Part shown: positions 5,007 through 19,374 of the stretch, one piece after another | Layout: each line of letters opens with the position of its first letter | How positions within the stretch are numbered: position 1 is the first letter of the stretch | Assembly: GCA_016839605.1 (NCBI GenBank) | Contig: JAEOTX010000157.1 | Coordinates: forward strand, 1-20,989 | Origin: Candidatus Thorarchaeota archaeon | GTDB taxonomy: Archaea; Asgardarchaeota; Thorarchaeia; Thorarchaeales; Thorarchaeaceae | Length of the DNA stretch: 20,989 nucleotides | Direction: 5' to 3' | The notes under the pieces: model-generated | Told to the model about the DNA's origin: nothing | Seen by the model: the letters and a program-made list of their open reading frames with translations, nothing else | The model's database searches: none | Translations under genes and position numbers: made by a program

Positions 5007-5122
5007 TAGCCTCGATCGGCCACTAAAAGATGGAATCTCATAATGGGAGAATATGCGAGTTCACACTCAGGATTTCCTAAGGTATAAGAAGTCTATTTCT
5101 CTATTGACAGGTGAGGGTCTAG

Positions 5123-5368
5123 ATGAGAGTCATCGAGGTTCATGTTCCATATTTGCATAGTTTCAGTTTGTGGCTTGAGAAACTCCATCAGCAACTTGGA
5201 GGCCTTTTTAGCCCGTGGGACTTGATGCTCTCTACATCCCCAACAGATGATATTTGGTTCCGTGTCTATAGCATGGGATATACTGTAGCAACCCTGCATC
5301 TAGATTGGGATGAATCAAAGAAGAAGTGCAAGATTTCAATCCATTCATCGTCGGACATAACTGAGTAG
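5123..5368 (+). CDS. Small hypothetical protein (81 aa)
   Basis: ATG preceded by AGGTGAGGG (SD-like) and a TATAAG box at ~5083. Globular-looking composition; fills the intergenic gap. Confidence 0.6.
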   Translation: MRVIEVHVPYLHSFSLWLEKLHQQLGGLFSPWDLMLSTSPTDDIWFRVYSMGYTVATLHLDWDESKKKCKISIHSSSDITE

Positions 5369-5404
5369 AAAATTGTTGATTATTGGGAGGAGTTTGATTG
5401 GCAG

Positions 5405-5590
5405 ATGATTGATCTCAAACCACCAGCATCACCACCTCTCCGGCGCTCGAAATTGAAAGTACGACCTGCTATCAAATGGTCCCCTCCCATATCCTGTCCT
5501 AATTGCTACGCTGTGTACAGGTATTCCAAATCTATGGTCGATTCAGGAACTATTGAATGTCAGAACTGCGAGCGGACATTCGAATACTGA
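5405..5590 (+). CDS. Small zinc-ribbon protein (61 aa)
   Basis: CPNC...CQNC pair, Pro/basic N-terminus, and a strong GGAGGAG upstream. Confidence 0.75.
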   Translation: MIDLKPPASPPLRRSKLKVRPAIKWSPPISCPNCYAVYRYSKSMVDSGTIECQNCERTFEY

Positions 5591-5645
5591 TGCCTGCCAC
5601 CTTAGTATTACTCGATGATTTATGCCTTAGAGAGAGAAATCTAGG

Positions 5646-5760
5646 TGGCTGCCTAGGTAAGCATCCCATAGCCCCGGCAAAACAGAATACTGCATTGTCT
5701 TGGTGTCCATACCTAAACAAGCCTAGGCTACAGAACTAAGTCTTGCCACCCCGACAGCCA
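5646..5760 (-). ncRNA. Putative structured ncRNA (~115 nt): long closing stem, 8-nt bulge, 11-bp stem and a three-way junction with two hairpins
   Basis: On the minus strand UGGCUGUC-G-GGGUG-GCA pairs with UGC-U-UACCU-A-GGCAGCCA, and UUCUGUAGCCU pairs with GGGCUAUGGGA, followed by GGC/GCC and two apical hairpins. About 9 G-U pairs work only on the minus strand. A TATA-like CTTATCA lies ~22-29 nt upstream and a pyrimidine tract lies downstream. Confidence 0.55.
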
Positions 5761-5768
5761 TTTTTTCG

Positions 5769-5834
5769 TTATCAAATCCCCCTGATAAGGGTTCACTCTA
5801 ACCACATTTGGAAGCGAAAGGATACGCCAAATGT
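5769..5834. promoter_or_regulatory. Divergent promoter region with two inverted repeats (TTATCA-N8-TGATAA and ACATTTGG-N15-CCAAATGT)
   Basis: Perfect inverted repeats at 5769-5788 and 5804-5834. The first overlaps the putative ncRNA TATA box; the second abuts TATATC upstream of the 5893 gene. Confidence 0.4.
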
Positions 5835-5892
5835 ATATCTAAGATTGATACTTATTGCTGAACATAATTCCTTGGTATAGGAGTCGTTTGAT

Positions 5893-6864
5893 TTGAAAAC
5901 GTGTCCAAAGTGTGGGAAAGCGAATGACATAATGCGGAAGTACTGTAGGGCTTGTGGAGCCTCTCTGATGAAGAAGGAGGAACCAGATCCTGAACCAGTT
6001 TCAGAACCAGAGCCTGAGCCAATTCCGGGTGCACCTGTCGAATCAGATGATGCGCCGCTTGTGCGTCCAAGTGATGTTGCTTCTGCCTCAGTCGAGGAGG
6101 TTGACGAACCACCCGTTCCTGAAGTTCTAGCAGAAGAAATTGAGGAGGAAGTTGAGGATGCTGAACCGGAAGTTATGGACTATGAAGAAGGCAGAGAGGT
6201 TGTCAAAGACATCCTAGCAAAGGTCAAAGCTGCAGAAGAACGTGCTACTACTGAAGACAAGGTCGTAGAACCTGAAGTCAGTGAAGCTGCTGTAGAAGAA
6301 GAAGTCGTTGAGGAGGCGATACCTGAGCCGCCCTCAGTTGAGGAGCCAGCCTATGAGCCTGAAATTGAAGAGGCTGCAGAAGTATCTGAAGAGCCGGCCC
6401 CTCCATCGCCTGAGGAAACGCCTGAACCTGCATTCACAGCTGTAGCTCCCACTCCTCCTGTTGCAGAGCCAGTTGACGAAATCTCGAGAGATGAAAAAGT
6501 CAGATCACTGGAGGCTGACATCAAGGCCTTCAACATAGAACTACAGGGTCTGCAGGCCGAGATGGAAAAACTACGCTCCCGCCTTGATGCAGAAGTTGAC
6601 CGATGTCACACTGTTGCCGAAACCAAGCGAACCCGGTTTGAGAGTGCAGAACGAGAGATGCGGCTCGCAAAGAAGGAGTTCGAGGAAGCTGACAAGGAAC
6701 ACAAGACCGCTGAAAAGCGTCGGAAGAAGGAACTGTCAGAGGCTGAGAAGCGTATCAAGGGCGTTGACAAGCGAATCAGAAAGGCAGAAGATGGCAAGAA
6801 GAAACGCATTGAGGACTTAGAGAAAGAGCGAAGGAAGCGTGAAGAAGCAGCAATGAAGGATTAG
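5893..6864 (+). CDS. Zinc-ribbon protein with an acidic Pro/Glu-rich disordered linker and a long C-terminal coiled coil
   Basis: CPKC...CRAC at the N-terminus, ~170 aa of E/P-rich low-complexity sequence, then a ~125-aa charged helical region. AGGAG lies upstream of the TTG start. Confidence 0.85.
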   Translation: MKTCPKCGKANDIMRKYCRACGASLMKKEEPDPEPVSEPEPEPIPGAPVESDDAPLVRPSDVASASVEEVDEPPVPEVLAEEIEEEVEDAEPEVMDYEEGREVVKDILAKVKAAEERATTEDKVVEPEVSEAAVEEEVVEEAIPEPPSVEEPAYEPEIEEAAEVSEEPAPPSPEETPEPAFTAVAPTPPVAEPVDEISRDEKVRSLEADIKAFNIELQGLQAEMEKLRSRLDAEVDRCHTVAETKRTRFESAEREMRLAKKEFEEADKEHKTAEKRRKKELSEAEKRIKGVDKRIRKAEDGKKKRIEDLEKERRKREEAAMKD

Positions 6865-19240: not shown

Positions 19241-19347
19241 CATGTGTGCGGTGACCAGAGCCAACAAGGCTTACTGGTAGGAGGGGGGGAGTTATGAGGG
19301 CATGTTACAGAAAATAGGCCCTGTCAGCCGCCTGACCACCACACATG
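19241..19347 (-). ncRNA. Putative small RNA: 28-bp imperfect hairpin presenting a C-rich loop
   Basis: Minus-strand stems CAUGUGUG/CACACAUG (8 bp), GUGGUCAGG/UCUGGUCAC (9 bp) and GCUGACAGGGC/GCCUUGUUGGC (11 bp), with 6 G-U pairs possible only on the minus strand. The loop contains AUGCCCUCAUAACUCCCCCCCUCCU. TTATTAAG lies ~20-27 nt upstream. Confidence 0.65.
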
Positions 19348-19374
19348 TAGTGTACTGCGCTACATCTTAATAAG
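19345..19374 (-). promoter_or_regulatory. TATA box (TTATTAAG) and an imperfect palindrome ATGTAGTG-N5-CGCTACAT between the TATA box and the putative RNA 5' end
   Basis: 7/8-matching inverted repeat at 19345-19365; TATA-like element at 19366-19373 on the minus strand. Confidence 0.45.

Follow-up and report, generated by a model that had tools for sequence, protein, structure and literature searches.

A candidate structured non-coding RNA gene confined to one sub-clade of a Thorarchaeota genus

Results and discussion

A folded, non-coding RNA is predicted from a conserved intergenic module

The window, a 20,989-nucleotide stretch of DNA from a Candidatus Thorarchaeota archaeon, very probably encodes on its minus strand a folded RNA, about 115 to 155 bases long and non-coding, as judged from the comparison of related genomes. 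In all likelihood this is a real functional RNA gene; it is probably transcribed on its own, is limited to one lineage and specifies a stable structured RNA, the first of a family that is not yet catalogued. An earlier note, made from the letters of the window, had proposed a novel stand-alone RNA on the minus strand, and this is still the best reading: the segment is conserved far above neutral DNA, is non-coding, follows a promoter-like box and matches no known family. The parts of the module and its neighbors are collected in Table 1.

The minimum-free-energy fold of the minus strand between positions 5640 and 5765 has a ΔG of −50.2 kcal/mol, compared to a mean of −37.5 kcal/mol for shuffled sequences (z = −3.64; 0 of 200 shuffles as good). 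This fold reproduced every element of the anatomy described beforehand, i.e., a 16-bp stem, an 8-nt bulge, an 11+3-bp stem and a junction with two hairpins, with P3 and P4 branching from a three-way junction. The approximately nine G-U pairs said to be specific to the minus strand were counted as nine in the fold. The plus strand of the same region folds much more weakly (ΔG −32.4 kcal/mol, z = −1.23), and the anatomy is thus strand specific. Four homologs, each folded alone, assumed the same architecture with z-scores of −2.6 to −3.5.

Between 98.7 and 99.6% of paired cells across the alignments hold a pair, compared to 32–48% when the partners are slid by one to three columns, a control that is biased because the structure was derived from those very sequences. 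Nine substitution events were observed in paired columns. Seven of these keep the pair (G-U to A-U or G-C), which by our own estimate is only weakly unusual under transition-biased mutation; one, a G to U change at column 34 in the homolog L070, breaks it; and one is compensated in an alternative register, being G-U in the window's assembly (G000) and in G001, U-G in G011, and G/G in the others. Among 11 sequences averaging 95% identity, zero to one double-sided changes were found, none of them clean, and column shuffles reached the observed covariation scores in 175–323 of 500 trials. These data thus agree with the fold but do not prove it.

Table 1. Features of the candidate RNA module and adjacent DNA (window coordinates)
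Feature	Position	Strand	Basis
Block 1, AGAGTGAACCCTTATCAGG, BRE/TATA-like putative promoter, 19 nt, with TTATCA at 5788-5783	5781..5799	minus	conservation
Variable spacer from box to start; A-rich at −10, pyrimidine at −1 (5760), G at +1 (5759)	5760..5780	minus	alignments
Structured RNA body, 113 nt	5647..5759	minus	fold and z-score, homolog folds, identity, pairing across alignment
P1 closing stem, 8+5+3 = 16 bp	5759-5744 with 5663-5647, plus U5760:A5646 pair	minus	predicted fold
One-sided bulge, 8 nt versus 0, AGACUUAG (as contact segment, AAGACUUAG)	5743-5736	minus	predicted fold
P2, 11+3 bp	5735-5721 with 5678-5664	minus	predicted fold
P3 hairpin, 6+3 bp, loop AUGGAC at 5710-5705	5720-5695	minus	predicted fold
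P4 hairpin, 4 bp	5693-5682	minus	predicted fold
U-rich (UUU) junction	5681-5679	minus	predicted fold
3′ tail: invariant ACCUAGAUU, then variable pyrimidine-rich linker; includes 3′ half of terminator-like hairpin 5656-5641	5624..5646	minus	alignment
Block 2, ATAAATCATCGAGTAATAC, 19 nt, ∼23 nt downstream, 3′ boundary of conserved module	5605..5623	minus	conservation
Extra DNA, ∼600 bp, G000 only, from RNA module to convergent LLM gene, outside RNA gene	5007..5604	.	
61-aa ORF, CxxC...CxxC, in extra DNA	5405-5590	plus	weak Zn-ribbon Pfam matches only
Zn-ribbon, acidic and coiled-coil protein gene, divergent neighbor, own TATA box ∼5829-5843	5893..6864	plus	

The RNA body is restricted to one sub-clade and conserved beyond its surroundings

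The window's assembly comprises 3.08 Mb in 259 contigs and is 80% complete. Homologs were sought with BLAST and with a covariance model (R1, built from alignment A2). Full-length copies were found in four assemblies of the same genus (G001, G002, G005 and G011). Two more assemblies of that genus hold truncated copies, that of G009 being cut by a contig end and that of G015 consisting of the last 39 nt at a contig end. Public contigs reached via the adjacent LLM-class oxidoreductase gene yielded five further full copies (L070, L071, L072, L073 and L074) and a cut copy (L069), and a metagenome DNA contig (L055) holds the 5′ half of the RNA. In total, 10 further copies were recovered, plus fragments. 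All of them come from a single sub-clade of one Thorarchaeota genus, where they invariably occupy the same locus, with one copy per genome. Beyond these carriers, R1 found none in 10 other genomes of the genus, in 86 genomes of the family (70 of them outside the genus) or in 150–151 genomes sampled across the phylum. With laxer filters, five genomes of the genus gave a single 17-bit match, inside a coding region; the orthologous gaps beside the Zn-ribbon gene in G004, G006, G007, G012, G013 and G016 gave noise only; and no copy was seen in two viral-contig scans.

Identity of the 113-nt body to the window's copy ranges from 91% (G011) through 94% (G002), 95% (G009) and 96.5% (G005) to 98% (G001). 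In the adjacent LLM gene, DNA identity is 78–82% overall and 55–64% at third codon positions, and in the Zn-ribbon gene it is 80–82%. Just outside the body, the same alignment is scrambled both in the 21-nt spacer on the 5′ side and in the ∼14-nt linker on the 3′ side, and these two stretches serve as internal neutral controls. Since 5S rRNA is 99–100% identical in the same genomes, the RNA evolves slightly faster than 5S rRNA, though far slower than its surroundings. From these sequence comparisons, the body appears to be under purifying selection.

This conservation is not that of a coding sequence. The conserved core has a 1-nt deletion in four genomes, its variation lacks codon periodicity, and no ORF is common to the homologs on either strand; the indel together with the non-periodic variation excludes a conserved ORF on both strands. 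One small frame, of 30 codons opened by an AUG at 5709, was considered specifically and rejected, as in four homologs it is put out of frame by the indel, and the substitutions it contains are non-synonymous and non-periodic.

A promoter-like block and a second conserved block bound the module

All 10 full homologs and L055 have block 1 unchanged or almost so, and the DNA further upstream differs between genomes. The spacer that follows is scrambled between species, with the A-richness and the step from pyrimidine at −1 to G at +1 kept in all copies. The TTATCA motif ends 23 nt ahead of G5759. In the same genome, the genes for tRNA-Gly, tRNA-Ile, tRNA-Thr and two tRNA-Arg have boxes (TTTATCA, TTTATCC, TTTTATAA or TCTATAA) 22–25 nt before the mature 5′ end. 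Given this likeness in spacing to tRNA genes, the geometry fits an archaeal promoter with a start at the first base of P1. The locus would thus have the features expected of an archaeal trans-encoded small RNA, being apparently intergenic and non-coding with putative promoter elements of its own at the right spacing.

The TTATCA box, the palindrome TTATCA-N8-TGATAA and the downstream pyrimidine tract (UUUCUCUCUCU, 5639-5629) pointed out in the earlier note are each present in the window's genome. The palindrome exists in that genome only; its TGATAA half sits in the variable spacer, and an operator was rejected on these grounds. A second copy of the promoter block, at C158, was also set aside, there being no RNA-like fold after it.

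At the 3′ end, a T3 run only is present, with no strong oligo-T. Block 2 is nearly invariant in 10 homologs, and conservation ends directly beyond it. In the window's genome it stays with the RNA and not with the LLM gene, and it is absent from an otherwise syntenic site without the RNA (L066, below). Block 2 may be either a single-stranded tail of the transcript or a 3′-end signal. Elsewhere in the window, at a small-RNA candidate on the minus strand (19241-19374), neither block 1 nor block 2 recurs.

The RNA persists through rearrangement of its neighboring genes

Orthologs of the Zn-ribbon/coiled-coil gene occur in 15 of 16 genomes of the genus, most of them without the RNA. The RNA had been described as transcribed divergently from this gene, which is correct for the window's genome, whereas its relatives have a DUF4760 membrane-protein gene or a remnant of it in between. 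The ancestral order appears to have been Zn-ribbon/coiled-coil (plus), divergent DUF4760 (minus), RNA (minus) and convergent LLM oxidoreductase (plus). The DUF4760 gene is intact in G011, L070, L071 and L072, cut down to its last codons in G001, G002, G005, G009, L073 and L074, and gone in G000, where tblastn at E ≤ 1e-3 found no DUF4760 homolog in the whole genome. Where intact, it lies on the same strand as the RNA and ends ∼5–10 nt before block 1 and ∼45 nt before the RNA. As the RNA is intact whether DUF4760 is whole, a remnant or gone, it has no cis dependence on that gene. An origin of the RNA from DUF4760 coding sequence was also considered and rejected, tblastn giving only fragments at E of approximately 1. 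A link to defense systems was rejected as well, PADLOC returning no match for the DUF4760 or Zn-ribbon proteins. Two side observations concern DUF4760: in G011 (L016 627-1375, minus), a 174-aa DUF4760 gene is followed in tandem by a second, 75-aa copy of the C-terminal half alone, immediately after which comes the RNA; and in the extra DNA of G000, the strand opposite the 61-aa ORF shows very weak, frame-shifted similarity to DUF4760 C-termini (E about 1).

It is conceivable, though improbable, that the RNA is an element of the DUF4760 mRNA 3′-UTR, or a small RNA processed from it, whose structured end stabilizes or terminates the message. The intact gene just upstream on the same strand in G011, L070, L071 and L072 and the last codons remaining in five other genomes favor such a relationship. 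However, the RNA and both blocks are kept where DUF4760 is a stub or deleted (G000), sequence invariance over 113 nt is far beyond the need of a stabilizing hairpin, and block 1 matches a promoter in both sequence and spacing.

On the other side of the module, the stop codon of the convergent LLM gene lies 65–72 nt from the RNA in G001, G002 and G005. Two pairings compete with the main fold. The first, a mutually exclusive 10-bp helix between 5719-5710 and 5659-5650, had been offered in the earlier note as a hint of switching. The helix can indeed be drawn here and exists in G000 and G001; however, both of its variable columns produce mismatches, one in three and the other in four of six homologs, with one mismatch falling mid-helix, and the same two changes are harmless to the main fold. 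With the alternative helix broken in most homologs, the switch was rejected. A riboswitch or cis-acting leader was likewise rejected: no minus-strand gene follows the RNA, the next feature in relatives being the convergent LLM gene, and the mutually exclusive 10-bp pairing is not conserved.

The second competing element is a terminator-like hairpin at 5656-5641 (CUAGG-CAGCCA-CCUAG, then AUUUCUCUCU), which is invariant and would tie up the 3′ strand of P1. On one reading this is a conditional stop, the RNA being the folded 5′ part of an antisense transcript that reads through over the 3′ end of the LLM-class oxidoreductase gene, in which the hairpin CUAGGCAGCCACCUAG with its U-rich tail would oppose P1 in a riboswitch-like antisense control. 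The closeness of the LLM stop codon in most genomes, the overlap of the hairpin with P1 and the lack of a strong oligo-T terminator are in its favor. However, in the window's genome ∼600 bp part the RNA, itself unchanged, from the LLM gene, and no LLM ortholog was found beside the RNA in G011. In addition, the 16-bp P1 is too stable for switching, the other alternative helix fails conservation, and archaeal termination is not hairpin reliant. Antisense control of this kind is accordingly very unlikely.

One relative lacks the module altogether. The JGI contig L066 preserves the gene order LLM–Zn-ribbon–YhhN, with an LLM protein that is 79% identical and a DUF4760 remnant that is kept, and is without block 1, RNA and block 2, i.e., an empty site. 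The presence of an empty site in a close relative indicates that the RNA gene is accessory and dispensable. In a tree of LLM proteins, L066 falls in an unresolved polytomy with the carriers, such that loss and gain are indistinguishable. No target-site duplications are visible between L066 and the filled sites, the intergenic DNA being too diverged. Four assemblies (G009, G015, L055 and L069) end inside the element, in keeping with heterogeneity between strains at a locus prone to rearrangement. No integrase, transposase, repeats or defense genes were found near the RNA.

These features also bear on whether the conserved unit acts as DNA, e.g., in recombination or attachment, or by binding protein where rearrangements are frequent, with the fold being incidental. 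Both flanks are indel hot spots (DUF4760 lost, duplicated or reduced to a remnant on one side and ∼600 bp extra in G000 on the other), and the empty site and the assemblies ending within the element point the same way. In contrast, the nine G-U pairs make the fold strand specific, the favored changes from G-U to A-U or G-C are relevant to RNA alone, and there is one copy per genome with no integrase, transposase or repeats nearby. A purely DNA-level role has correspondingly little probability, and an RNA product is the preferred reading.

Known RNA classes do not account for the module

Over the whole window, Rfam 15 produced nothing at gathering score, and nothing touched the 5646-5760 region at E ≤ 10; the family search called for in the earlier note thus ended without a match. 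That note had seen neither tRNA-like nor 5S rRNA features, and both statements held up. ARAGORN found no tRNA in the region, and a tRNA or tRNA-like identity was rejected: there is no cloverleaf with a T arm on a 7-bp acceptor, and the bases 5′ of the acceptor-like 3′ strand cannot form a T stem-loop. RF00001 (5S rRNA) was absent both from the window (gathering score and E ≤ 10) and from the whole G000 assembly, and the lack of a match in this incomplete genome made 5S rRNA a serious candidate at first. However, the carriers G001, G002, G005, G009 and G011 each have a canonical 5S gene (54–67 bits) on a separate contig. As relatives that carry the RNA also have a canonical 5S gene elsewhere, the RNA is not 5S rRNA.

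Guide RNAs and other classes were rejected on their defining motifs. For a box C/D RNA, UGAUGA is missing from the RNA, as is a conserved GA from the spacer on the 5′ side of the body; block 2 reads CGAG, CUGAG or UUGAG and is D-box-like only, and it was rejected as a D box, as its partner C box is not conserved and Rfam returned nothing for look-alike loci. For a box H/ACA RNA, the internal loop is one-sided (8 nt versus 0) and no ACA follows the closing stem, the tail being ACCUAGA. For a Y RNA in a Ro ribonucleoprotein, the TROVE domain (PF05731) was not found in the genome (80% complete), nor was there an Rfam Y RNA match. The core motifs of the K-turn and the hammerhead were absent by sequence inspection, with Rfam empty at E ≤ 10.

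A divergent member of one of these classes (5S rRNA, tRNA-like, C/D or H/ACA guide, Y RNA or ribozyme) that all searches missed is hardly probable: a length of ∼115 nt with a three-way junction recalls 5S rRNA in an incomplete genome without a 5S match, and block 2 is similar to the 3′ terminus (YYGAGUAAUAC) of a further small conserved unit with C- and D-box-like motifs, but canonical 5S genes are present elsewhere in carriers, Rfam (E ≤ 10) and ARAGORN are empty, and UGAUGA or a conserved GA 5′ of the body, an ACA box, a two-sided pocket and a TROVE/Ro protein are all missing.

Two side observations arose from these searches. The 5S gene of G015 (L081, C14:2485-2606) is 88–89% identical to those of its sister genomes, themselves 99–100% alike, and the RNA copy of G015 (taken from the near-identical assembly L073) is 95–100% identical to its sisters' copies; the contig with this 5S gene may have been binned from another lineage. 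ARAGORN reported 13 tRNA genes in the whole G000 assembly (3.08 Mb, 80% complete), a low count that may reflect intron-containing or unassembled tRNA genes.

Proposed mode of action and relation to described RNAs

In the proposed scheme, transcription would start at G5759, ∼23 nt past the TTATCA TATA-like box. The first 113 nt would fold into a rod (P1, the 8-nt bulge and P2) capped by the three-way junction and its two hairpins, and a 3′ tail would reach the pyrimidine tract or beyond, probably taking in the 19-nt block at 5623-5605. We infer that the RNA acts in trans, with the rigid 5′ domain providing stability and a scaffold for protein binding, and with four invariant unpaired segments as likely contact surfaces for protein or, as in archaeal intergenic small RNAs, for target RNAs: the bulge AAGACUUAG, the AUGGAC loop, the UUU junction and the conserved block of the 3′ tail.

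Helices and loops alike are near-invariant despite near-saturated synonymous divergence next door, which argues that more than secondary structure is read; this in turn favors protein binding or multiple RNA contacts. The role is consequently taken to be that of a trans-acting regulatory or protein-bound RNA. Given a functional RNA gene, a protein-bound RNA within a ribonucleoprotein and a base-pairing regulator are equally plausible, each with a little under an even chance, and other roles are less likely. A genome-wide search for complementarity to the RNA and to block 2 gave chance-level matches only, with no target or partner; a pile-up of complementarity on ACCAAGACAAUGCAG was rejected, as it occurs on both strands and looks compositional.

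The RNA is tentatively placed, on sequence features, in the broad class of archaeal intergenic small RNAs. Like members of this class, e.g., sRNA162 of Methanosarcina mazei (PMC3510493; reviewed in PMC4152357 and PMC5867862), it is a stand-alone gene of ∼100–200 nt in an intergenic gap. It also resembles archaeal intergenic small RNAs in having a BRE/TATA-type promoter, a structured body and conserved unpaired segments, in being lineage restricted and in being missing from Rfam (PMC3510493, PMC4152357, PMC5867862). In contrast to them, the Thorarchaeota RNA is conserved over its whole length including the helices, rather than in a short seed; it has no target complementarity above chance; and it comes from a different phylum (Asgard/Thorarchaeota).

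With 5S rRNA (RF00001) the RNA shares its length, a three-way junction closed by a helix of the 5′ and 3′ ends, high conservation and its own promoter. It differs in consisting of a long rod with two short hairpins instead of two long arms, in giving no RF00001 match at all, and in being confined to one sub-clade and missing in a close relative. A third comparison is with motif candidates of the Weinberg/Breaker type, which are likewise defined by conservation, predicted fold and genomic context alone. Such orphan families are usually backed by many covarying pairs over wide phylogenetic ranges, whereas the Thorarchaeota RNA is represented by 11 near-identical sequences with essentially no covariation.

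Asgard archaea are the closest prokaryotic relatives of eukaryotes, and their non-coding RNAs are almost unexplored; the clade considered here has no cultured member. A small RNA that stays near-invariant amid drifting and rearranging genes points to a function missed by protein-centered annotation, and it is short and well defined enough to be pursued by metatranscriptome mapping, probing and pull-downs. Its narrow distribution, in only about ten lineages that are closely related to one another, and its dispensability in one close relative limit its value. The RNA adds one well-documented entry among orphan RNAs, rather than a new question.

A bolder and rather unlikely possibility is that the RNA is the scaffold of a clade-specific Asgard ribonucleoprotein, its helices frozen in sequence without compensatory swaps, the whole surface being read by proteins or RNAs. 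Were this true, these frozen helices and the signals shared with a second small-RNA family in the same genomes would together suggest a dedicated pathway of small-RNA expression and processing in Thorarchaeota.

A second conserved intergenic unit carries similar signals

This second unit, of ∼85 nt, occurs twice in G000 (C116:15553-15571 and C156:10407-10425, both minus) and at L082 (G001 C230), L083 (G009 C103) and L084 (G014 C106). It is laid out as TCTGTTTATCAAGG, then GCGCAGC-GGAGATGATTGC..., then ∼24 nt of variable sequence, then ACAAATTAC[T/C]GAGTAATAC. Its upstream box resembles block 1, and its 3′ 19-mer agrees with block 2 at 14 of 19 positions (17 of 19 with the L070 variant), a likeness that was found post hoc and is to be set against 8 observed and 7.6 expected matches to block 2 at up to four mismatches. 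The signals common to both units are a promoter-like YTTATCARGG and a 3′ AYAAAUYAYYGAGUAAUAC. The second unit also has a C-box-like GAGAUGA and a D-box-like CUGA or CCGA, and on these motifs it may represent a C/D-type small RNA family.
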